Source of the DNA: Saccharolobus solfataricus
GTDB taxonomy: Archaea; Thermoproteota; Thermoprotei_A; Sulfolobales; Sulfolobaceae
Length of the DNA: 32,000 nt
Assembly: GCF_900079115.1 (NCBI RefSeq)
Contig: NZ_LT549890.1
Span: 720,001-752,000 of the forward strand
Reading direction: 5' to 3'
Of this stretch, positions 10,606-32,000 are shown one piece after another. The notes below the pieces were generated by a model. The model was not told the DNA's origin and searched no databases. It saw only the letters and a program-made list of their open reading frames with translations. Within the stretch, counting starts at the first letter, position 1. Every line of letters starts with the position of its first letter. Position numbers and translations under genes: made by a program.

Positions 10606-11153
10606 AGAGTGTGTCTAACAATTTTATTCACCTTGTTGTATAAAGTGAAGAAAGCCTTAATACACCTCATTATTAAAGCTTTGTGTGGGAAGTGTTTACC
10701 AATTTGCAAGCCTTAACTTCAAACTCCTAAACACATGTTCTACCAAGTTCACAGAATGTCTAATGTTTTAAGCCCAAAGCAAAGAGTGCATTATACCATG
10801 TCGTGAAGTATTTTACCAGTCAAGCTTAATCCCTCAAAGTCTAATCCTAGTCTAAGACCACAAATACCGTGATTAAATCCATCAAAACCCAATAAACTGA
10901 GTTATTAACTACCCTAATTCTCATCAACAGCATAGGGTAAGGGTACTCGCCCAACTTCCTCCACAGTACTCCTACGCGAAGTGATACCTCGACCCTCCTC
11001 AACAAGCTGATAAAGCTCTTGTAACTTCATCCCTAGTACAAGGGGAAATGTTTAAAGCAAGGTGAGGCGTTCCAACTTGCTTCTCATATTTCCCCTTATA
11101 TTACCACCTCACCATCCTACTAAAATTTTATACAAAAATTGTTGGACACATTC
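10606..11153 (+). mobile_element. Non-autonomous MITE-like element, copy A (~548 bp)
   Basis: Collinear over its full length, at high identity by eye, with the reverse complement of 25928..26474. The termini are inverted: AGAGTGTGTCTAACA at the left and TGTTGGACACATTC at the right. No ORF of 60 aa or more on either strand. No target-site duplication recognisable. Confidence 0.8.
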
Positions 11154-11326: not shown

Positions 11327-12280
11327 CTAAACTGTCAACCACGGCTCGTCTTCTACGAAGAACTTATCATTAATTAAAGGCTCCCACCACCATCTGTTAT
11401 TCAAATACCATTCATAAGTCCTCCTCAGACCCTCCTTAAATGGCGTTACTTCATATTTCATACTTGTTGTCATACAATACCTTCTATCGTGGCCAGGTCT
11501 ATCTGAGACAAACTTTATCTTAACCTCTTTACCGCTCACTTCCTCCAACATCTTCAAGATCTCGAGCACATTATACCTCTGCCCTCCCGGTATGTTATAT
11601 ACTTCCCCTTTCCACTCAGCTCTACTCACCACGTCGAAAATTATCCTAGCAGTGTCCTCTACAAATATCCAGTCTCTTTCAGCTTTCCCATCACCGTACA
11701 CTGGAATGTGTATCCCTAGTAAAGTCCTAATTATAGCCTTAGGTATTAACTTTTCAGGGAACTGCCTAGGACCGTAGTTATTAGATGGTCTAACTATAAC
11801 CGCACTTATCCCATAAGTCCTTACGTAAGCCTTTACGAACAAGTCAGCTGACGCTTTAGACGCGCTATAAGGAGAAGAGGGTTTTAAAGGTGAGTTCTCA
11901 TCCCCGCACTCCTCACCGTAAACCTCATCTGTAGAGATGTGGACGTATTTGAAATTGAATTTCCGTGAAGCCTCAAGTAAGTTTACCGTACCTAGAACAT
12001 TAGTAGTTACGAAATCTTGTGGTTTATAAATTGACCTATCTACGTGGGTCTCGGCTGCGAAATTTATGACGATGTCTGGAGAATACTCCTTAATTATATC
12101 ATGCATTTTTTCGCTCCTAACGTCGGCTTGGACGAAATCGTAGTCTGTCCCAATGAGGTTTTCCTTCCTTCCAGCGTAGGTTAAGAGGTCTACTACGATG
12201 GGCTTTATACCCCTCTTGTTCAACTCCCTCACGAAAGCGGAGCCTATGAACCCAGCACCACCAACTACTATGATTTTCAT
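11327..12280 (-). CDS. rmlB: dTDP-glucose 4,6-dehydratase
   Basis: 317 aa, intact. It has the extended-SDR motifs VVGGAGFIGSAF (GxxGxxG), ISTDEVYG and YSASKASADLF (YxxxK). It is the last gene of the rml operon, and its ATG overlaps the rmlA stop (ATGA at 12277..12280). Confidence 0.9.
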   Translation of the reverse strand: MKIIVVGGAGFIGSAFVRELNKRGIKPIVVDLLTYAGRKENLIGTDYDFVQADVRSEKMHDIIKEYSPDIVINFAAETHVDRSIYKPQDFVTTNVLGTVNLLEASRKFNFKYVHISTDEVYGEECGDENSPLKPSSPYSASKASADLFVKAYVRTYGISAVIVRPSNNYGPRQFPEKLIPKAIIRTLLGIHIPVYGDGKAERDWIFVEDTARIIFDVVSRAEWKGEVYNIPGGQRYNVLEILKMLEEVSGKEVKIKFVSDRPGHDRRYCMTTSMKYEVTPFKEGLRRTYEWYLNNRWWWEPLINDKFFVEDEPWLTV

Positions 12281-23369: not shown

Positions 23370-23388
23370 CCTCGCCCTTTAGGCGAGG
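23370..23388 (+). other. Right-end subterminal hairpin of the IS200/IS605 element
   Basis: cctcgcc-cttta-ggcgagg: a 7-bp perfect stem, 14 nt after the tnpB stop. It is followed by AG and then by the decayed IS110 copy. Confidence 0.6.
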
Positions 23389-23390
23389 AG

Positions 23391-24483
23391 CTTCCGGTAT
23401 AAAAACTTTTAGCCAAAAATTGAGCATAGTGCACACTACTTATGCAAACAAAAGCCCTCGTCATCACTCGTTAGCATTAAATGGCTTATTATAATACAGC
23501 AAGACCCAAGTAATAACAACCTAATACATGCAACAATCAACTTCTTACCCTTTAACCTACCCTTATGCCCCTCATAAAAACACTTAATCACCGGATTAAC
23601 CTTGATAACAGTCAAAACTGCAAGATAGAAAACCCTCCTCAACCCTCCTTGAGACACCTCAAAATACAACACTCAACAGAATCAAGACCACAATAAGCCA
23701 CAAACTTCCTCTTATCATCAAAACGCCTAACATCACCTACCCTCGCCAAAATTATCAAACCCAGCACCTTCCTAAAGATCAAACTATCCCTAGGAACAAC
23801 ATCCTCAAGCCTCTTCTCAACCTCCCTCTTCCTAGCCTCAAGCCTCTCCAACTCATCCAAAAGAAACTTAACCTCAGACAAGATAATATTATCCCCACCC
23901 TCCAATACTTCACTCAAATTCTTCCTAGACAAGCTATCACTATAACCCAAGAGGATTAAGTCCCCAACCTTTTCTTAACCCTAACAATGACGATAAAATC
24001 CCATTGACTCGTCAACTCCCTAGCATCACTTAACGTAAACTCACATATTAACAACTAGTTCAGCGAGTTTTTTAGCATCATTCTTGTCACTCTTCTTACC
24101 CCTAAAATCCTTGAACTTCTTGATTACCAAGGGATTAATAACCCTCACCTCATACTTGGCAAGGTTAACGTGGTAAACTCCGGTACTCTTAATACCTACT
24201 TTACAACCTCTCGGCATCACTTCTTCAAAACCTTGCTTATCGTTAGGAAACTCGTAGAATTTACCTTGAAAATATACTATTAGTTTATCTTTTGATATAT
24301 TTATCCCTGCAACTGGGGTCTTCATGTATCCTTATGTTTTATTCGGGCTTTTTGTCCAACTTCCAGTCTGAATTTGGAGGTTGGCTAAGCTTTAAGTCGA
24401 GCTTTAAGCTCAAGGATGGACTACACTCCAGTCAGATCTGTATTACTCAGATCTGACCAATATGTTTTATATAAGGAAGTCAG
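23391..24483 (-). mobile_element. Decayed IS110-family element (copy of 28851..30036), ~1.09 kb, transposase broken into three or more fragments
   Basis: ORFs 24041..24325, 23639..23950 and 23436..23672 are colinear with the intact 316-aa transposase at 29011..29961. They lack CLMNE and the TIPGIGKT helix-hairpin-helix and carry frameshifts. The non-coding ends also match: 24330..24483 against 28851..29010, and 23391..23460 against 29965..30034. Confidence 0.85.
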
Positions 24484-24744
24484 CCAGAAAGCTTTCCTAC
24501 AAAGTATAGATACAGTGGAGCAAGTTATGGAATGCAGTTAGCTGCTGCAGTTGAGGGAGGTTTAATGCCAATACTACTAGTCGGTCTACTAGGACTGCCT
24601 TCACAATATTTAGCAAATTCTTGGATAGTTATTACATTCTTAGCATTATGAGGAATAATATCAGCGTTGGCTACATTAGGTTTAAAGGAAACTAAGGGAA
24701 CACAGTTAGCTGAAGAGAAAGCTACTAACAAGGTAATATCATAA
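24484..24744 (+). pseudogene. 3' fragment of an MFS (metabolite:H+ symporter-type) transporter gene
   Basis: The + strand reads PESFPTKYRYSGASYGMQLAAAVEGGLMPILLVGLLGLPSQYLANSWIVITFLAL*GIISALATLGLKETKGTQLAEEKATNKVIS*. The FPTxxRYSG ... GG..P and ETKG motifs are typical of the last helices of MHS-type MFS transporters. There is an in-frame TGA at 24649..24651. The 5' part is missing, cut at the IS110 boundary. Confidence 0.6.
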
Positions 24745-24767
24745 TTTATTAACAACTTTTTTCCTTT

Positions 24768-25128
24768 TTATCTCATTTTTTCTATCTTTAATCTCTCTTC
24801 GACTTTTTTAATTGATTCAAAATCATTATCGTTAGTCACTATTATCATGTCCCTGTTTAGGGCAATAGAAGATAAAATTATATCCACCGCATTAACTGGC
24901 TCTCCTATTTTTCTTAGTTTAACCATTATCTTTTATGGCAAGTTCGTAATCACTTCTTGTGGGATAAATTATTATCAATTTCTCCTTTAGATCTATTATT
25001 GGAGGGTATTCTATCACATTTAGTATGGACGTTGTTACGTAATTAGTCGTAGATAGGAGAGATTTATTCTTATGAATTTTAATTAAGGCGTTCGTATCGT
25101 AGATCTTTTCTTTAATTCTCTCTGAAAT
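24768..25128 (-). pseudogene. vapC: PIN-domain VapC-type toxin, frameshifted and without a canonical start codon
   Basis: The reverse strand reads IKEKIYDTNALIKIHKNKSLLSTTNYVTTSILNVIEYPPIIDLKEKLIIIYPTRSDYELAIK. After a shift near 24925 it continues VKLRKIGEPVNAVDIILSSIALNRDMIIVTNDNDFESIKKVEERLKIEKMR*. YDTN and VTNDNDF are the first and last acidic PIN motifs. Confidence 0.6.
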
Positions 25129-25199
25129 TCGTCCTCACCTTGAGGAGGTTCCACATTTATATCTTTTTCATCTACACCGAGTCGTTTAAGTCTCTCCAT
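25083..25199 (-). CDS. Short ORF upstream of and overlapping vapC; possible truncated antitoxin
   Basis: MERLKRLGVDEKDINVEPPQGEDEFQRELKKRSTIRTP, 38 aa. Only its position, immediately 5' of and overlapping the PIN gene, supports the call. It is much shorter than typical VapB proteins. Confidence 0.25.
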   Translation of the reverse strand: MERLKRLGVDEKDINVEPPQGEDEFQRELKKRSTIRTP

Positions 25200-25222
25200 A
25201 AGTTCATTCCCTGTAGTTATGT

Positions 25223-25897
25223 CTAAGGTGTGGGTTTGAAAAGCCGAGGCCAGTTTAGATCTATTATGCGTGTAATCCTCAAGTCTGCTTCTAAATGCTT
25301 AATTATTTCATCATATTTCTTATTCTCGTATAAGCTCTTTACTTCTTCACCCTTGCCATATGGTTTAGGCACATTCACACCTTTTTCCCTGAGCATCTCT
25401 GCCAAATATTCAAGCTGCAGCCCCTTAAACCGCATGTTATTAAGGGGCAAGGCCATTTGGAGGTAGTCTCTGGTGAAAGTATTGTGCCATAGACTGTTCA
25501 GCTCTTCTAGACTTCCAACCCTGTGTTCTACCCCCTTCTGAATGAGGAGCGGTATGTCGAACCTAAGTATATTGAACCCTACAACCTCGATATACATCTC
25601 TTTACGTCTCCACTTCTCTATCAGCTCTTTTAGATACTTGTAGAATTGGGTAACAACACTATACTCGTCATGCTCCCACTCTTCACTACGCTCGTCACGC
25701 TTCCACTCTTTAAAGTATTTGAACTCCACCTTAGGAAGATCCCATATGTTTGAGGATTCAGGTTTATAATCCGTCTGATCAGCTATCAATCCTATGGCAA
25801 TTACCTTCTCGTTTACAAATGCACTCTTAGGCCTATAGGTCTCTATATCGAGATAGAGCCTCATATCCCCTAGCAATCCCATCCTAATACTATGCAT
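25223..25897 (-). CDS. RNase H-like / DEDD-type 3'-5' exonuclease-fold protein (YprB / PolB-exonuclease-like)
   Basis: 224 aa. RLYLDIET is Exo I (D-x-E). VVGFNILRFDIPLL is the Exo II-like N-x-x-x-F-D. IKHLEADLRITRII is a distal acidic motif. TATA aattttatata (reverse strand, 25901..25911) is only 9 nt from ATG 25897 but about 24 nt from the second ATG (MGLLGD, 25882), which is the more likely leaderless start. Confidence 0.65.
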   Translation of the reverse strand: MHSIRMGLLGDMRLYLDIETYRPKSAFVNEKVIAIGLIADQTDYKPESSNIWDLPKVEFKYFKEWKRDERSEEWEHDEYSVVTQFYKYLKELIEKWRRKEMYIEVVGFNILRFDIPLLIQKGVEHRVGSLEELNSLWHNTFTRDYLQMALPLNNMRFKGLQLEYLAEMLREKGVNVPKPYGKGEEVKSLYENKKYDEIIKHLEADLRITRIIDLNWPRLFKPTP

Positions 25898-25927
25898 CGT
25901 TATATAAAATTTTACCGCTATTCAACC

Positions 25928-26474
25928 GAGTGTGTCCAACTATTTTTGTTTTTAGTAGGGCGGTGAGGTGATAATATAAGAGGATAATATGAGAAGTAAG
26001 TTGGAACGCCTCACCTTGCTTTAAACATTTCCCCTCGTATTAGGGATGAGGTTATAAGAGCGTTATCAGCTTGTTGAAGAGGGTCGAGGCATTATTTCAC
26101 GTAGGCGTACTGTGGAGGAAGTTGGGCGATTACACTTCGCCCCTCACCCTAAGCTGTTGATGAGAATTAGGGTAGTCAATAACTCAGTTTATTGGTTTTG
26201 ATGGATTTAATCACGGTAGTTGCGGTCTGAGACTAGGATTAGACGTTATACTTCTCTTTGATGGATTAAGTTTGAGGAGAATGGTAAAATACTTCACGAC
26301 GTGGTATAATGTACTCTAGCTCTTGTGTAAAGCGTTAGACATTCGGTGAACTTGGTAACAAGTATTCAGAAGTCGTTAAGGCTAAACACTTCCCACACAA
26401 CGCTTTAATAATGAGGTGGATTAAGCTTTCTTCACATTATACAACAAGGTGAATAAAATTGTTGGACACACTCT
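25928..26474 (-). mobile_element. Non-autonomous MITE-like element, copy B (~547 bp), inverted relative to copy A
   Basis: Its reverse complement aligns end to end with 10606..11153. The termini are GAGTGTGTCCAAC and GTTGGACACACTC(T). No ORF of 60 aa or more. It starts about 17 bp from the TATA box of the exonuclease gene. Confidence 0.8.
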
Positions 26475-26619
26475 ATAACTCAGTAGCAAATCTAATAAGT
26501 TTCTGAGTACTATTCATTAACGTGAGAAATTATAATCTGACCTCCTTATATATTACATAGAACATAACGTAAATTAGCCAACAATCTTATTTACTTAGTT
26601 CTGTTTAGAAATTTTTATA

Positions 26620-27201
26620 TTGATTGATCTTTGTGTAGTAAAATGCGATGAAAATGAAGTTAAAAAGAAATCTAAGGAAATAGTTGAAGGTCTTAAGGAA
26701 ATATATGATAATTTTAATGATTCACTCATAAAAGAGATTAGAGTTGAAGAATCAGTATTTGGTATAAGGGGATCTTACAACTATAATTCCAAGATATTAA
26801 CATTATATTGTATTAATTGTGTAATATGTGTTGAAACTATTGTCCACGAAATAATTCATTCAAATAGCTATAAGCGGGCAAGAGATATGTATTTTGAAGG
26901 TTTAACCGAATTTCTTACATTGTATTATCTAAAGAAGAGAGTTAGAGCTTGCTTAGATCATAGATTTATTGATGAAATTTGTCGAATTAATAAAGAATAC
27001 GAAATATATGCTACATTTTGGGGTAATCTAGCTTTGATTATAGGAATAAAAGAATTGTGGAAATATTATTCCAAAGGATATAATCATAATAATATAGATA
27101 ATTTGGTAAAGAACGATATTTACAAAGCTTCTTTTGAGTTAGCAAAGAGATATAATACTAAGTTAATGGATTTAATTGATGTTATAGAGAAATTAGAATA
27201 G
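26620..27201 (+). CDS. HExxH zinc-metallopeptidase-like protein (ImmA/IrrE-like or MA-clan gluzincin-like)
   Basis: 193 aa with a TTG start; the start is uncertain because there is no in-frame ATG near the 5' end. The motif is VETIVHEIIHSNSYKRARDMYFEGLTEF, that is H76-E77-x-x-H80 with E93/E97 12-16 residues later. It is preceded by a strand-like GSYNYNSKILTLY. Confidence 0.55.
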   Translation: MIDLCVVKCDENEVKKKSKEIVEGLKEIYDNFNDSLIKEIRVEESVFGIRGSYNYNSKILTLYCINCVICVETIVHEIIHSNSYKRARDMYFEGLTEFLTLYYLKKRVRACLDHRFIDEICRINKEYEIYATFWGNLALIIGIKELWKYYSKGYNHNNIDNLVKNDIYKASFELAKRYNTKLMDLIDVIEKLE

Positions 27202-27264
27202 AATGCTATACTTTGCTAGAGTCTATTAGTAAAGCTTTTATTAGTATGTATAGTATAGTTATAC

Positions 27265-27633
27265 ATGAGTTTTGGTTTTTATTATGCTGGAATAATTACC
27301 AAGGCAGACGCTATAAGGATTATTGACTTATTAAATAAAAAGGGTCTTTCTAAGTCGGAGATAGCAAACAGGATAGGAATAACTAGGAGTTCTATTTATC
27401 AGTGGATTTGGGATATTGTGAAAGATATAGACTATGAAAATAAAGTAAAACTTCTTGATTTATTTTATGAAATAGATAAATTCGAAGCTATAAATTTTAT
27501 AGAAGAAATACTAAAGGAGCATCTAAAAATTCTAGAAAAGGAAAAAGAGATAAATTTTAAGCCCACGATAAAAGTAGAAAAAATACTAGTTCCTGCTTCA
27601 ACTACAGTTCAATTAGGAGTTGTAGATTATTGA
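27265..27633 (+). CDS. Small helix-turn-helix DNA-binding protein
   Basis: 122 aa. GLSKSEIANRIGITRSSIYQWIWD is a classical HTH (helix, G-I turn, recognition helix). A BRE/TATA box aaagcttttattag is centred about 25 nt upstream of the ATG. Confidence 0.6.
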   Translation: MSFGFYYAGIITKADAIRIIDLLNKKGLSKSEIANRIGITRSSIYQWIWDIVKDIDYENKVKLLDLFYEIDKFEAINFIEEILKEHLKILEKEKEINFKPTIKVEKILVPASTTVQLGVVDY

Positions 27634-28178
27634 TCATAAAAAGCATAAGAATTTTGTTTAAGTTTTCCTATCCTTATACTTTAGACTTAAGGGACATGAT
27701 TAGAATCCTCAAGGACTTAAGCTACGTTATCTCTAGTAATTTACCATTAACTCCTCCAGGGTCTATGATATTAGGAAGTGTAACTGCATTAAAAGATGAT
27801 TTAATAGTAGAATTCAATAACATTACTGGTACTATAAGTTTCTTTATTCAATCCCTAGATAAAATAGACTTAGTTGAGGAAGACTTTAGCAGGATTGTTG
27901 GTAATTTAAACTTGGGCAAGATAGATTACATAGAATTATCATTAGAAATGATATTAAATGGAAAATTAAATTTAAATATAAACATGCTAGGAGGAGAAGT
28001 TGTAGGTCTGGAGGTATCGTCAGAGAGGAAGAACGTTAGAATCAACTCTTACATGGCAATGGCTAACTCCTATTCCGTGCTAATTACTTATAAATTAAAC
28101 GAAATTAAAGATCTAGATAAAGTCACTGAAGAAATAAAAAGAGATATTCAAGAACTTGAGAATAAAGGATTAAGATAA
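27630..28178 (+). CDS. Hypothetical protein, no family recognised; translationally coupled to the HTH gene
   Basis: 182 aa. Its TTG start overlaps the upstream TGA (TTGA at 27630..27633). It has no TM segments and no motif I can name, and its C-terminus is charged and coiled-coil-like (KVTEEIKRDIQELENKG). Confidence 0.5.
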   Translation: MIIKSIRILFKFSYPYTLDLRDMIRILKDLSYVISSNLPLTPPGSMILGSVTALKDDLIVEFNNITGTISFFIQSLDKIDLVEEDFSRIVGNLNLGKIDYIELSLEMILNGKLNLNINMLGGEVVGLEVSSERKNVRINSYMAMANSYSVLITYKLNEIKDLDKVTEEIKRDIQELENKGLR

Positions 28179-28404
28179 CTTATAAGATACTACGTCTACT
28201 CTTCCTAACGAGATAGTTTATCACAACTGAAGTAAGATCCATTACTTACTTCTTGCCCAAGTCTCGCAAATGACCCGACTGAGCTCTAAAAGAACTGTTA
28301 CATTAAATCTCTTAGACGCTATACTCCCTGCTACTGCAGTTAAGCTCATAAGTTACTACTAAAAGTCGGCAAAGCTTATTAGCTAGCGATAGAAATCTAT
28401 CTTT

Positions 28405-28809
28405 ATGAATGAATATATTGCCAGATATGTTGTATCTAAGGATCATAGAATAATCGGGGTGATAAATACTAGGTACACGGCAAATAACGACGATGAGAGT
28501 ATTAAAATTGCTAAATCCGTTTGTGAGAAGTTAGGTGAAGAAGACATTGAAGAACTAATAATAGGAAAGGTAATAGGTACAGTGAGCGTAGACGTAATAG
28601 GTAACTTATTAGGAAAGTCCGATGATGACAAATTGCTCGGAACCATAGCTGGTGCAATAGTAGGCACATTAGTTGGTCACGCTATAGATTCTACAATAAC
28701 TAAAGTAATATACTCCAAAAAGTATCCTTGTATCAAGCCTAGGCCTTTTGAAGATATTGTTAATTATGTTGACCTCGAAAGATTAGAAGAGATAGTTAAT
28801 GAACGTTGA
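28405..28809 (+). CDS. Small protein with two glycine-zipper segments
   Basis: 134 aa. IIGKVIGTVSVDVIGNLLG and LLGTIAGAIVGTLVGHAI (GxxxGxxxGxxxG) lie between a soluble N-terminal ~50 aa and a charged C-terminus. A BRE/TATA box aaagcttattagc is centred about 28 nt upstream of the ATG. Confidence 0.55.
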   Translation: MNEYIARYVVSKDHRIIGVINTRYTANNDDESIKIAKSVCEKLGEEDIEELIIGKVIGTVSVDVIGNLLGKSDDDKLLGTIAGAIVGTLVGHAIDSTITKVIYSKKYPCIKPRPFEDIVNYVDLERLEEIVNER

Positions 28810-28850
28810 CGAGCTTATCAATTTATGTAATAGTTACAGTCTGACTTCCT

Positions 28851-29010
28851 TATATAAAACATATTAGTCAGATCTGAGTAATACAGATCTGACTGGGGTG
28901 TAGGCCGTTGACTCCCTTGAGCTTAAAGCTCGACTGGGAGCTTGGCCAACCTCCAAATTCGGACCGGAAGTTGGGCAAAAAGCCCGAATAAAACATAAGG
29001 GTGAATACAC
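28851..29010 (+). ncRNA. Candidate bridge-RNA-coding left end of the IS110 element
   Basis: This 160-nt non-coding leader has several hairpins: gtcagatctg-agtaata-cagatctgac, gagct-taa-agctc and gggc-aaaaa-gccc. Two 8-nt segments, GGGAGCTT (28936..28943) and ACCGGAAG (28963..28970), match the element's right junction ACCGGAAGCTCCC (30027..30039) in antisense and sense. The RNA itself is inferred, not observed. Confidence 0.4.
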
Positions 29011-29961
29011 ATGGAGGCCCCAGTTGCAGGGATAGATGTATCAAAAGATAAACTAATAGTATATTTTCAAGGTAAATTCTACGAATTTCCTAACGATAAG
29101 CAAGGTTTTGAGGAAGTGAAGAAAGTCCTGCCAAGAGGTTGTAAAGTAGGTATTGAGAGTACCGGAGTTTACCACGTTAACCTTGCCAAGTGCTTGATGA
29201 ATGAGTATGAGGTGAGGGTTATTAATCCCTTGGTAATCAAGAAGTTCAAGGATTTTAGGGGTAAGAAGAGTGACAAGAATGATGCTAAAAAACTCGCTGA
29301 ACTAGTTGTTAATATGGGTAGTGAGTTTACGTTAAGTGATGCTAGGGAGTTGACGAGTCAATGGGATTTTATCGTTAAGAGTATTGTTAGGGTTAAGAAC
29401 AGGTTGAGGAGGGACTTAATCCTCTTGGGTTATAGTGATAGCTTGTCTAGGAAGAATTTGAGTGAAGTATTGGAGGGTGGGGATAATATTATCTTGTCTG
29501 AGGTTAAGTTTCTTTTGGATGAGTTGGAGAGGCTTGAGGCTAGGAAGAGGGAGGTTGAGAAGAGGCTTGAGGATGTTGTTCCTAGGGATAGTTTGATCTT
29601 TACTATACCGGGTATTGGGAAGACGCTGGGTTTGATAATTTTGGCGAGGGTAGGTGATGTTAGGCGTTTTGATGATAAGAGGAAGTTTGTGGCTTATTGT
29701 GGTCTTGATCCTGTTGTTGAGTCCAGTGGGGGGAGTGTTGTGTCGCGAGGTATCTCAAGGAGGGGTGATGCTGTTTTGAGGAGGGCTTTCTATCTTGCAG
29801 CTTTGACTGCTATCAAGGTTAATCCGGTGATCAAGCGTTTTTATGAGGAGCATAAGGGTAGGTTAAAGGGTAAGAAGTTGATTGTTGCATGTGCTAGGAA
29901 GTTAGCTGTTATTACTTGGGCTGTGCTGTATTATAATAAGCCCTTTGATGCTAGTGAGTAA
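29011..29961 (+). CDS. IS110-family DEDD transposase/recombinase
   Basis: 316 aa. The N-terminal RuvC-like DEDD motifs are AGIDVSKDKL, GIESTGVYH and KSDKNDA. The C-terminal domain has the helix-hairpin-helix TIPGIGKT and SSGGSVVSRGISRRGDAVLRRAFY. Confidence 0.9.
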   Translation: MEAPVAGIDVSKDKLIVYFQGKFYEFPNDKQGFEEVKKVLPRGCKVGIESTGVYHVNLAKCLMNEYEVRVINPLVIKKFKDFRGKKSDKNDAKKLAELVVNMGSEFTLSDARELTSQWDFIVKSIVRVKNRLRRDLILLGYSDSLSRKNLSEVLEGGDNIILSEVKFLLDELERLEARKREVEKRLEDVVPRDSLIFTIPGIGKTLGLIILARVGDVRRFDDKRKFVAYCGLDPVVESSGGSVVSRGISRRGDAVLRRAFYLAALTAIKVNPVIKRFYEEHKGRLKGKKLIVACARKLAVITWAVLYYNKPFDASE

Positions 29962-30256
29962 AGCAGGTTTCATCACTTGCGTAAGTAGTGTGGACTATGC
30001 TCGATTTTTCATGGAAAGGTTTTTATACCGGAAGCTCCCCGCCCTAAACGGTAGACCCAAAATCATATTAGAAAAAATATTTCTGGTGGGATAATATCGA
30101 TTCATGATAGATAAAGCAATTTATATGAGTATTAAGAATTCAGTTGAAGAAAGGTTTAAGGTGAGGGAGATGTGGTATTACCACGTGAGTAAGTGAGATG
30201 GTAACACCAGTACTCCCTCACCGAACATTCAACAAATAGGATATAAATTACTTTCC

Positions 30257-30346
30257 ATGCTGAACTTCAAGGGAAAGAAAGGGGAAGAGGTGGCGAGAAC
30301 CCTCATCTCAGCGTGTTTATGGAACGATTCGGTGGAAAGCAAGTCG
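30257..30346 (+). pseudogene. Possible 5' piece of a gene interrupted by the IS5-family element
   Basis: ATG 30257 gives MLNFKGKKGEEVARTLISACLWNDSVESKS and runs straight into the IS terminus at 30347. The link to the ORF after the IS is unproven because the frames differ by 2 nt and no target duplication is visible. Confidence 0.3.
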
Positions 30347-31634
30347 AGAGAGTGTCCCAAGCGCAAATAATTGAATAAATATAGTATGATAGAAAAATAA
30401 TTTTATAATTAATTAAGAATAAAATATAATTATATCTTTCAGTATAACGAGAGATTAAGCTTATATTGTAATGGAAAATAATCAAGTATAGAGAAAAACA
30501 GAATTTCCAACATAGTCCACACTACCTTGATCAACTCTCGCGGTACAAGTTAGTGGGCGAGTTGACTCTCCGGAACACGCGATAACACAGAAGTGTAGAT
30601 GTAGGAGTTGTAAATCAACGCGATAACGTAGACAAAGAACTCGACCATACCCTTTTCAGTAGCGTAAGGCCTCCAATACCTCCTCAAGAAGATCCCAAAG
30701 AACTCCACATACCTCCTGAAACTAGAGAAACCTATCAACCAGGTCGAGGACTTCCCCACGAAGCCCCTATCCACTACCTTATAACCGCTGCGAGAGAAGC
30801 CAACCTTATTGTCCGGAAAATTGGCCAGTTCCACTTGAATCTCGTGAACTATCATTGTTGGCGACATGAGGTTGAAGACCTTGAAGCCGAAGTAACTCCT
30901 GTTCCTCTTCTTTGTAAACTCTCCCTTGAACCTCCTCCTCGCTTTGCACTTAATGTAAAAGAAGAGCGTGTTAGCCGCCTCCCTGTACTTCCTCTGCCTT
31001 AGGTCTAGCTCAAACTTCTTCTTCAATGTTTCCTTGTTCCTCTTCCCGAAGGGTACCTCGATTAGGAAGGAATCCACGATCCACAGCTTTCCAACCTTTC
31101 CGTATAACGCACTGCTAGGTAAGTAGTCGGCAAGTCTACTCATCTTCCCCTCCAACTCCTTGGCGTACTCCTTGAACAGAGTCTTTACCTCTCCCCTAAA
31201 TTTCTTTGCCCTCCTATGGATCTCCGACTTAGACTTGTACTCGCCTAGGAACCACCTTACCACCACGTCTGACTCGTAGTAGCTCCGCACGTCCCTGTAG
31301 GAGCACGTCCACACAATCATTACTATTAACGCTCTCAATATGAAGAGGTCAGAGAGACGCGACAGCACTTCAGACGTGATCAGCATGTAGTTCATTTTCA
31401 CAAGTGTTTTATGCCTTGCTGATAAATGTTCATAGGGAACCGGGCCGTTGTAGTATTCTATCCAATGCTTCATGTGAATCGGTACTACATCGTCCCGGTT
31501 CCCTTTAAGTATTACGCGACTTTTTGCTTCAAGCGAAAATTCAAAATTTCTCAGTAATTCACGATATCTTTTGAATTATTATCTATAAACCTTTACATAG
31601 ATTTATTCAATTATTTGCACTTGGGACACTCTCT
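30347..31634 (-). mobile_element. IS5-family insertion sequence, 1288 bp, with 34-bp terminal inverted repeats (ISC1290-like by size; name unverified)
   Basis: The left end AGAGAGTGTCCCAAGCGCAAATAATTGAATAAAT (30347..30380) matches the reverse complement of the right end AGAGAGTGTCCCAAGTGCAAATAATTGAATAAAT (31601..31634) at 33 of 34 positions. It holds a single transposase ORF. Confidence 0.85.
30550..31473 (-). CDS. DDE transposase, IS5-family type
   Basis: 307 aa. The candidate DDE residues lie in WIVDSFLIEV, YKVVDRGFVGKS and SFRRYVEFFGIFLRRYWRPY. The last resembles the Y-x-x-R-x-x-x-E-x-x-F-x-x-L-K-R block of IS5/IS4-type enzymes. Confidence 0.75.
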   Translation of the reverse strand: MKHWIEYYNGPVPYEHLSARHKTLVKMNYMLITSEVLSRLSDLFILRALIVMIVWTCSYRDVRSYYESDVVVRWFLGEYKSKSEIHRRAKKFRGEVKTLFKEYAKELEGKMSRLADYLPSSALYGKVGKLWIVDSFLIEVPFGKRNKETLKKKFELDLRQRKYREAANTLFFYIKCKARRRFKGEFTKKRNRSYFGFKVFNLMSPTMIVHEIQVELANFPDNKVGFSRSGYKVVDRGFVGKSSTWLIGFSSFRRYVEFFGIFLRRYWRPYATEKGMVEFFVYVIALIYNSYIYTSVLSRVPESQLAH

Positions 31635-31636
31635 TG

Positions 31637-32000
31637 AAAGGACAGATAGAACCTGGGAGGGCGATCCATTCAAAAAGTTCGACTTCTATATTCCTAAATA
31701 TAATTTATATTTAGACGTTACTGGTACATCATTCACCAAATCAGAGAGTATAAAAAGGGCGCATATGCTGCAATTGAGAGGAGCAATAATCGCTATTCTG
31801 GGCATAAAAGTTTCGGTGGCAGAAATACTTGCTGCGAAAGGCTATAGAACTGCTTTTGCTAATGTTGCAGAGAGAGAAGGTGAGATAAGGTTTATGCCAT
31901 ATTCTAGACTGAAGGTCTTAGAAAAGAATGGAAGGGCCATTATCGCCCAACCAGAAGAAATAGAGTTTGCGAAAGGCGAAAGAACGTATATACTCACAAG
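31637..32000 (+). CDS. Hypothetical protein, partial (continues beyond the right window edge); possible PD-(D/E)xK-like motif
   Basis: Absent from the ORF track because it is open at the edge. It reads ERTDRTWEGDPFKKFDFYIPKYNLYLDVTGTSFTKSESIKRAHMLQLRGAIIAILGIKVSVAEILAAKGYRTAFANVAEREGEIRFMPYSRLKVLEKNGRAIIAQPEEIEFAKGERTYILT. FDFYIP...LYLDVTGTSFTK loosely fits a D...(D/E)-x-K nuclease core. It begins directly at the IS boundary and has no start codon of its own. Confidence 0.45.

Follow-up and report, generated by a model that had tools for sequence, protein, structure and literature searches.

The stretch of DNA considered here, called the window below, comprises 32,000 nucleotides from Saccharolobus solfataricus (contig NZ_LT549890.1, positions 720,001 to 752,000), and within it four small genes, g1 to g4, follow one another between two mobile elements. 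An earlier note had reported four same-strand open reading frames here, and all four are present on the + strand just where it put them (Table 1). It had further proposed that they form a single AT-rich cassette, delimited by a miniature inverted-repeat transposable element (MITE) on the left and an insertion sequence (IS) of the IS110 family on the right, and that this cassette might be a conflict or addiction module. As a unit the cassette does not survive: by distribution, base composition, promoter and linkage to a PIN-domain gene g4 stands apart, and the block consists of two juxtaposed modules, a mobile trio of g1, g2 and g3 and the stump of an unrelated glycine-zipper/PIN pair cut by an IS.

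Are the four frames genes at all? In Nei-Gojobori estimates against homologous loci the ratio of non-synonymous to synonymous substitution rates (dN/dS) is 0.16-0.35 for g1, 0.06-0.09 for g2, which is the most constrained, 0.13-0.29 for g3 and 0.10-0.17 for g4; all four are under purifying selection and are therefore real. Their counterparts in strain P2 (AAK41140-AAK41143) carry, in that order, the annotations hypothetical, helix-turn-helix (HTH), hypothetical and glycine zipper. The trio had not been described before, and the products of g1 and g3 lie outside all profile libraries. No publication on these genes came up in literature searches under their accessions or under SSO locus tags presumed from their order, and an Rfam scan and a bacterial promoter and terminator scan of the region were uninformative.

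From about 26400 to about 28200 the content of guanine plus cytosine (GC) is 0.26-0.30, against about 0.36-0.42 on either side, and for the g1-g3 unit as such it is 0.28 against 0.36 for the rest of the window. The AT-richness earlier ascribed to the whole block thus holds for g1-g3 and their leader, and fails for g4 (GC 0.35) and for the spacer 28179-28404 in front of it (0.38), neither of which is AT-rich.

Table 1. Genes, control elements and mobile elements at the locus (window coordinates)
Feature	Position	Strand	Remarks
MITE-like non-autonomous element	25928-26474		about 547 bp; left neighbour of the trio, outside the module
Conserved g1-g2-g3 unit with its own leader	26546-28188	+	blastn breakpoints, low GC; 1.65 kb
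g1	26620-27201	+	193 aa, TTG start
BRE/TATA-like promoter of the g2-g3 operon, AAAGCTTTTATTAG	27231-27244	+	centred about 26 nt before ATG 27265
Candidate operator, ATGTATA-N7-TATACAT	27246-27266	+	palindrome overlapping the g2 start codon
g2	27265-27633	+	122 aa, ATG start
g3	27630-28178	+	182 aa, starts with TTG in the g2 stop (TTGA)
g4 promoter, AAAGCTTATTAG	28371-28382	+	about 26 nt before ATG 28405; conserved in trio-less S. islandicus and S. tokodaii
g4	28405-28809	+	134 aa, ATG start
First 14 codons of a PIN gene (VapC-like)	28799-28840	+	overlaps the g4 stop; cut by IS110
IS110-family element	28841-30051	+	intact 316-aa transposase at 29011-29961; ends placed by homology with the second copy

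Extent and transfer of the g1-g3 unit

Blastn was used to align the window with all the related loci that had been fetched (numbered below with an L), and tblastn to follow the co-occurrence of the genes. With Acidianus and metagenome loci (L010, L017, L019-L022) the unit shares 93-95% nucleotide identity, and the homology ends abruptly, on the left 74 nt upstream of the g1 start codon and on the right 10 nt downstream of the g3 stop codon, the sequence beyond being unrelated on both sides in each of these loci; in Sulfuracidifex metallicus homology spans 26561-28326. Since the genera are too diverged for chromosomal DNA to align, this amounts to recent horizontal transfer of the 1.65-kb segment across them, and the suggestion that the genes are carried on mobile DNA is borne out for the trio, which keeps such identity across genera in differing flanks. 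The two mobile elements were wrongly taken for its limits: neither the MITE nor the IS110 element coincides with the breakpoints, which fall at 26546 and 28188.

All three genes are found together in S. solfataricus, a Sulfolobaceae metagenome-assembled genome, Acidianus, S. metallicus, S. shibatae and L013-L015, with Acidianus providing seven of the fetched trio loci (L010-L012, L017, L019-L021), most of which have one common context. Protein identity over all recovered trio loci ranges from 37 to 96% (S. shibatae 53-63%, L015 40-55%, contigs L013 and L014 37-44%). There are two gene orders, g1 being on the opposite strand in L013 and L014, divergent from g2-g3 and still adjacent to them; the g2-g3 coupling is present in all. 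The earlier note had asked whether genes 1-3 or genes 2-4 travel together: g1-g3 do so in every locus recovered, and g4 is absent outside S. solfataricus and A. infernus. The trio is apparently missing from S. islandicus and S. acidocaldarius. Scans of GTDB genomes and of metagenomes returned close copies only, because the peptide patterns employed were narrow, and the unit is possibly also present in other Thermoproteota. In L015 (a contig of ENA ERZ1669405, 1869 nt) the trio has a GC content of 0.57 and the proteins are 40-55% identical; the contig implies that a thermophile of high GC content, beyond the usual range of Sulfolobales, also carries the family.

Decay of the unit follows a pattern. 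In an Acidianus lineage g1 is frameshifted at about residue 134 (L017 4034-4608), as seen in several independent assemblies, and in S. metallicus at about residue 50 (L024-L026, e.g., L025 8992-9569), again in several assemblies, with g2 and g3 intact in both; in A. infernus (L023) g1 and g2 are deleted and g3 is truncated at its 5' end. Such a pattern, with g1 broken beside an intact g2 and g3, and with g3 damaged where g1 and g2 have gone, would be consistent with addiction. As to surroundings, the neighbours of the trio elsewhere include a PDC-S01 ATPase, type III CRISPR genes, VapB- and CcdA-like genes, TnpB, other transposases and PaREP1, i.e., it sits among defence or toxin-antitoxin (TA) genes and IS elements.

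Downstream of g3, a segment of about 50 nt (window about 28270-28326; L010 about 11650-11700) reads AAAGAACTG...CTCTTAGA.GCTA.ACT and is recognisably similar in the Acidianus loci; the spacer around it is unrelated between the window and Acidianus, and it has no Rfam match.

What, then, of g4? The glycine zippers seen in it earlier are there, its match to the glycine zipper 2TM family PF05433 scoring 32.5 bits (cut-off 24.2), and its homologues across Sulfolobales number 30. An intact PIN gene follows it in A. infernus and in five S. islandicus genomes, with the PIN ATG inside the end of g4 so that the two overlap by 11 nt, and in S. tokodaii a frameshifted PIN gene follows with the same overlap; the S. 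islandicus and S. tokodaii loci have no trio. Bit scores for the PIN domain are 35.6 in the A. infernus partner and 41.9 in that of S. islandicus (g4/PIN loci: window 28405-28840; L033-L037 4001-4865; L028-L032; L023 1575-2478). The uninterrupted A. infernus locus L023 matches the window up to 28840 and then runs into its PIN gene, and tblastn of the A. infernus PIN protein against the window gives 13/15 identities at 28799-28843; the window holds nothing more of the PIN gene. The earlier note had overlooked this PIN remnant. With homology reaching that point, and the first 14 PIN codons lying just before it, g4 therefore opens a separate glycine-zipper/PIN pair, which IS110 has inactivated in this genome.

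Among trio loci g4 is confined to S. solfataricus and A. infernus, with a g3-g4 spacer of 226 nt in both, and is absent from the other Acidianus, S. shibatae, S. metallicus and metagenome copies; in A. infernus it adjoins the remnant without g1 and g2. The notion that g4 is the effector of a protease/HTH module is thus at odds with its distribution, its constant partner elsewhere being the PIN gene. Like a VapBC pair, g4-PIN has a small upstream gene overlapping the PIN gene, its own promoter and a patchy occurrence in Sulfolobales. Unlike one, its first member is a glycine-zipper 2TM protein in which Pfam and NCBIfam detect no RHH, AbrB, PHD or other DNA-binding antitoxin domain, only glycine-zipper families matching, and in the window the PIN gene is destroyed. 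It is nevertheless a conserved Sulfolobales pairing, with an atypical occupant of the VapB position.

The three proteins and the g2 control region

That g1 encodes an HExxH...E protein of zincin type was a sound observation. The motifs are HEIIH at residues 76-80 and EGLTE at 93-97, and in six sequences down to 38% identity H76, E77, H80, S81, N82, E93-G-L-T-E97 and H114 are invariant. An AlphaFold2 (AF2) model (mean predicted local distance difference test, pLDDT, 85.7; predicted template modelling score 0.87) has the zincin layout, with a backing helix, a small beta-sheet, the HExxH helix and then the glutamate helix, to which about 85 residues of extra C-terminal helices (109-191) are added. 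In Foldseek searches of the PDB the informative matches are all zincins and head the list, though all are weak: the best is selecase (4qhg; E 0.038, probability 0.98, template modelling score (TM) 0.35 by query and 0.55 by target, root-mean-square deviation 6 A), and jannalysin, abylysin, IrrE/PprI, PrpR, M32 carboxypeptidases, ERAP2, MATCAP, Spartan and ArdC are also among them, the IrrE/PprI structures 3dte, 8sln and 6cyj with E 0.3-0.4 and TM about 0.2. On the strength of model and motif g1 is probably a soluble gluzincin-like zinc metallopeptidase of an undescribed family, its activity being predicted.

Sequence comparison takes the matter no further. A Pfam scan of six family members at E <= 10, and NCBIfam, PHROG and PADLOC, gave nothing usable for g1; the Peptidase_M78/DUF955 profiles found nothing in the six members at that threshold; and PDB sequence-profile searches returned chance matches only, with no IrrE/PprI sequence among them. 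Any kinship with ImmA/IrrE is accordingly one of fold at best, IrrE/PprI and PrpR being matched weakly, and membership of M78/COG2856 is not borne out by sequence: g1 resembles ImmA/IrrE in its proposed action and yet cannot be filed in that family. Chance-level hits of g1 or g3 to IPPT/MiaA, DUF749 and SepF in the family scans, and to ribosomal L7, cubilin and PilZ in the PDB sequences, were discarded. Six cysteines (5, 9, 64, 70, 111 and 121) are invariant in the same six sequences; they and H114 lie outside the HExxH...E site and might make up a structural metal site, disulfides or a cysteine switch of the kind reported for CapP and Wss1.

For g2 the earlier call of a small HTH protein is upheld by Pfam, in a marginal but consistent way (HTH_3 at 23.6 bits, where the cut-off is 23, UPF0122 at 24.9 bits, and HTH_23; about 1e-5), and the PDB matches are YlxM/sigma-region-4-like and HipB-like. 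Conservation extends over residues 1-95 and is lost in the variable C-terminal tail. It is a generic HTH protein, and we predict it to be an autorepressor.

What lies in front of g2 is more conserved than the proteins themselves, both in the promoter box and in the sequence from box to ATG. The BRE/TATA-like boxes noticed before ATG 27265 and ATG 28405 are confirmed as AAAGCTTTTATTAG and AAAGCTTATTAG, and both are conserved in homologous loci, the former being kept in close copies and present in a looser form in L018 and L015. The leaderless start proposed for g1 finds no support: the strongest TATA-like box there, TTTTTATA (26611-26618), directly adjoins the TTG, and the box at about -30 is a weak one. 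Between the AAAGCTTTTATTAG box and the body of g2 stands the palindrome of Table 1, intact in S. shibatae, whose trio proteins have diverged as given above, extended to 9-nt arms in Acidianus and replaced in L014 by ATGTGTGTA-N7-TACACACAT, of the same geometry. There is one per locus, always over the g2 start, and none in front of neighbouring genes. It is a candidate autorepressor site over the transcription start, and since palindromes of this kind are common in AT-rich DNA, the argument for an operator is a comparative one, from conservation.

The start of g3 within the g2 stop, as earlier described, is likewise genuine, and the coupling is conserved in all loci, by a 4-nt overlap (TTGA) or, in L013 and L014, one of 20 nt; a GGAG/GGTG motif lies 10-16 nt upstream of the g3 start. 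Relatives of g3 are few. A word-indexed search gave eight hits, and when 1.84e9 representative proteins were searched exhaustively with a profile, about six of the matches were true relatives; three long repeat proteins also matched and were set aside as spurious, one of them, P0017, being a repeat protein on reading. Pfam, NCBIfam and PADLOC hold no family match for g3, PHROG gives a chance-level one only (E 0.13) and PDB sequence-profile searches chance matches only. The most conserved segments are FSYPYxLDLRD (12-22) and PPGS (42-45). Its AF2 model (pLDDT 81.6) is two-lobed, (beta-alpha-beta3-alpha)x2, with low-TM Foldseek resemblances to AdoMetDC, the N-domain of spermine synthase, Med18/20, CYTH and ACT and, in a viral structure library, to giant-virus orphans and the VETF large subunit (VETF-L). 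When the halves were compared by hhalign an in-register signal appeared (E 0.003, probability 9%), too weak for an internal duplication to be relied upon. More speculatively, the AdoMetDC-like sandwich of the model, together with the invariant PPG-S in a long loop, might suggest a self-processing pyruvoyl-type enzyme.

A possible protease-gated switch and its rivals

Taken together, the co-travel of g1-g3, the AT-richness of the transferred unit and the zincin model make a zincin/HTH switch with a coupled third gene a reasonable proposition. The reading we favour, and to which we would give about an even chance, is that the unit is a self-contained mobile three-gene module of Sulfolobales, of the protease-gated switch or addiction type. 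What we infer is as follows. The g2 protein would bind the palindrome over its own transcription and translation start and so repress the g2-g3 operon; as its reading frame is coupled to that of g3, it is probably bound to g3 in a complex as well. The separately transcribed g1, as a soluble HExxH...E metallopeptidase, would on a trigger cleave g2. DNA damage, infection or redox stress may be that trigger, perhaps sensed via the invariant cysteines. Cleavage would de-repress and/or free g3, the constant cargo, which would be the effector and possibly a growth-arresting toxin. A bolder version makes the trio an autonomous archaeal conflict system, of abortive infection or addiction kind, in which a zincin of a new family would respond to infection or to damaged DNA by destroying an HTH repressor or antitoxin, so freeing a g3 of new fold and activity; this version is tentative, and we would not lean towards it as it stands.

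The logic is an analogy with switches known from elsewhere. Protease-gated repressor switches govern the induction of prophages and of integrative and conjugative elements, the response of Deinococcus to radiation and many immune operons of bacteria; we know of none characterised in archaea, and a literature search for ImmA/IrrE in Sulfolobus returned nothing relevant. In ImmA/ImmR of ICEBs1, IrrE(PprI)/DdrO of Deinococcus and CapP/CapH of CBASS (bioRxiv 10.1101/2022.04.27.489752), as in the trio, an HExxH peptidase adjoins a small HTH gene, and at our loci the HTH partner adjoins g1 in all of them and in two orientations. Further likenesses to these M78 switches are the operator-like palindrome at the promoter of the HTH gene itself, the mobile or defence-associated DNA, the presence of IrrE, PprI and PrpR among the fold matches of g1, and the conserved cysteines of g1, which recall CapP. 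For CapP an internal cysteine switch has been reported. The differences are that g1 has no sequence similarity to M78/DUF955 or to the IrrE sequences of the PDB, and an IrrE fold match of TM about 0.2 only, and that the trio is archaeal, has an obligatory coupled orphan as third gene and cleaves its g2, if at all, by proposal.

Makarova, Wolf and Koonin (2009; PMC2701414) predicted three-component COG2856-Xre-toxin systems with a PIN or RelE toxin, mostly bacterial, in which the protease inactivates the repressor/antitoxin. Such systems resemble the trio in joining a protease, an HTH protein and a third gene in one mobile unit with a patchy distribution driven by horizontal gene transfer, and differ in that the third gene of the trio is not PIN, RelE or a known toxin and in that its protease and HTH are separate proteins of unclassified families. 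To our knowledge no archaeal demonstration of that prediction exists. The best structural matches of g1, the minigluzincins (selecase, projannalysin and proabylysin of Methanocaldococcus/Pyrococcus), are likewise archaeal and soluble, with an HExxH helix and then a glutamate helix after a small beta-sheet and backing helix. At about 100-110 residues they are much smaller than g1 with its 193 and lack its extra helical domain and N-terminal CxxxC, and PDB profile searches find no sequence similarity between them and g1; we know of none paired with an HTH gene. The trio is most likely an undescribed archaeal variant of protease-gated repressor modules or of three-component TA modules.

Several points weigh against this interpretation. 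On the g1 side the fold matches are weak (best E 0.04, with a query-normalised TM of 0.35), and profile and PDB searches give no sequence link to M78/COG2856 or to any peptidase family. On the side of g3, no credible match to a known toxin or enzyme family emerged from Pfam, NCBIfam, PHROG, PADLOC or the PDB sequences, fold matches of TM 0.2-0.5 are uninformative on activity, and the protein is soluble and acidic (pI 5.0) without an obvious catalytic signature. The palindrome is missing from L013 and L015, and, palindromes of similar size being common in this AT-rich DNA, it is not statistically exceptional. The decay pattern comprises three events only, the family is small, its roughly eight distinct contexts making for thin co-occurrence statistics, and no expression or phenotype data for these genes were found in the literature.

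Could g2 and g3 be an ordinary type II TA pair, with g1 accessory or independent, being itself the toxic partner of the HTH protein (the role first suggested for COG2856 in COG2856-Xre pairs) or a peptidase of other substrates, and in neither case gating g2? Coupling and an autoregulatory architecture would suit this, and small overlapping genes of which the first has an HTH, patchy and transferred and set in defence/TA islands, are what type II pairs look like, though g3 belongs to no recognised toxin family. That g1 is transcribed as a unit of its own, in an orientation that varies, and is dispensable enough to be frameshifted in two lineages, also favours the idea, as does the listing of COG2856 as a possible toxin in PMC2701414. 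Yet g1 has remained next to g2-g3 despite an inversion and a divergence to about 38% identity, with its catalytic motif invariant, which is hard to explain without a functional tie. Moreover, the characterised zincin/HTH pairs that we know of all act by repressor cleavage, and we consider the plain pair rather unlikely. An alternative, which we hold to be unlikely, takes the trio for what remains of the immunity or regulatory region of some unrecognised integrated element (viral, plasmid or other), with g1/g2 as an ImmA/ImmR-like induction switch and g3 as a non-toxic protein specific to that element, e.g., one that acts early or in replication and has a pseudo-dimeric alpha/beta fold. It agrees with the low GC, the horizontal transfer and the IS-rich variable regions; switches of ImmA/ImmR type typically control mobile elements; and the best matches of g3 in the viral library are the giant-virus orphans and VETF large subunit already mentioned. 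Against it, no copy of the trio was found in IMG/VR contigs, GenBank phage and virus records or PLSDB plasmids, only the 1.65-kb trio is common to the loci with no integrase, replication or structural gene co-travelling, and the palindrome occurs at g2 only.

The company that the trio keeps suggests another role, that g1/g2 are a CapP/CapH-like stress regulator of neighbouring defence genes with g3 as a co-factor or sensor. In six loci, mostly copies of one context, an AAA_15/AAA_21 ATPase (AriA/AbiLi-like, about 1e-13) and a 187-189-aa protein with a weak OLD-like TOPRIM stand head-to-head with the trio in loci of Acidianus type, and the S. shibatae trio adjoins another AAA_15 ATPase. However, neighbours vary with context and these are missing from the window and from S. 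metallicus; the two ATPases share generic P-loop motifs only, so that their orthology was rejected; no second palindrome stands before the neighbouring genes (the operator here being a candidate itself); and the constant partner is g3. Such a regulator is in our view quite improbable. The three alternatives just described are less well supported than the module we favour, and the remaining one, a single four-gene cassette with g4 as membrane-acting effector of the protease/HTH switch, is contradicted and very improbable indeed. It can claim that g4 follows g3 at the same distance in two species, one of which, A. infernus, has g4 beside a truncated remnant; it must contend with the absence of g4 from all other trio copies, its host-like GC and own conserved promoter, and its coupling to a PIN gene in trio-less genomes.

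If the protease-gated module is what it seems, what would it offer? It is a compact, sharply delimited mobile candidate in the genetically tractable Sulfolobales, and learning what g3 does and what activates g1 might uncover an effector and a high-temperature sensor of stress or infection, both of them new; on the conflict-system version, if true, it would be an archaeal counterpart of ImmA/ImmR- and CapP/CapH-type switches. Quite apart from that, the boundaries of the gene modules are corrected, and a glycine-zipper/PIN pairing outside the usual VapBC pattern comes to light.

Flanking elements and neighbouring genes

The MITE recognised earlier to the left is confirmed as a MITE-like repeat, ending at 26474 with a perfect 13-bp terminal inverted repeat (GAGTGTGTCCAAC at 25928-25940, GTTGGACACACTC at 26461-26473), and a second, inverted copy of 90-96% identity lies at about 10606-11090. 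An IS at 30344-31637, with a 307-aa open reading frame lacking a clear Pfam match, has terminal repeats that begin GAGAGTGTCCCAAG, similar-looking to GAGTGTGTCCAAC, and might mobilise the MITE.

On the right, family and place of the IS110 element were correctly given, its distance less so: the left end is 31 nt after the g4 stop, not 41. Its transposase matches DEDD_Tnp_IS110 (58.9 bits) and Transposase_20 (97.9 bits). The second IS110 copy, at 23382-24490, is inverted and degraded, with a broken transposase, and the two copies, left ends inward, bracket 24491-28840 with an exonuclease gene, the MITE, the trio and g4. Such an inverted pair could allow inversion, which may explain why the remainder of the PIN gene is not beside the IS. 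At 26537-26559 a sequence, CTGACCTCCTTATATATTACATA, resembles the IS110 left end CTGACTTCCTTATATAAAACATA, and contains the left breakpoint of the trio; the resemblance may mark a target-like site of IS110 or a footprint, or may be coincidental.

The ATPase/TOPRIM-like pair beside the trio elsewhere (L010 8230-9812; L021 3808-5420; L017 2257-3845) is by appearance a PARIS/AbiL-like defence candidate in archaea. In the window itself, between the degraded IS110 copy and the MITE, a stand-alone 224-aa protein is encoded on the - strand (25223-25897), with a weak match to the 3'-5' exonuclease of family B DNA polymerases (PF03104/PF10108, about 1e-3) and to PHROG DNA polymerase/exonuclease (about 4e-5).

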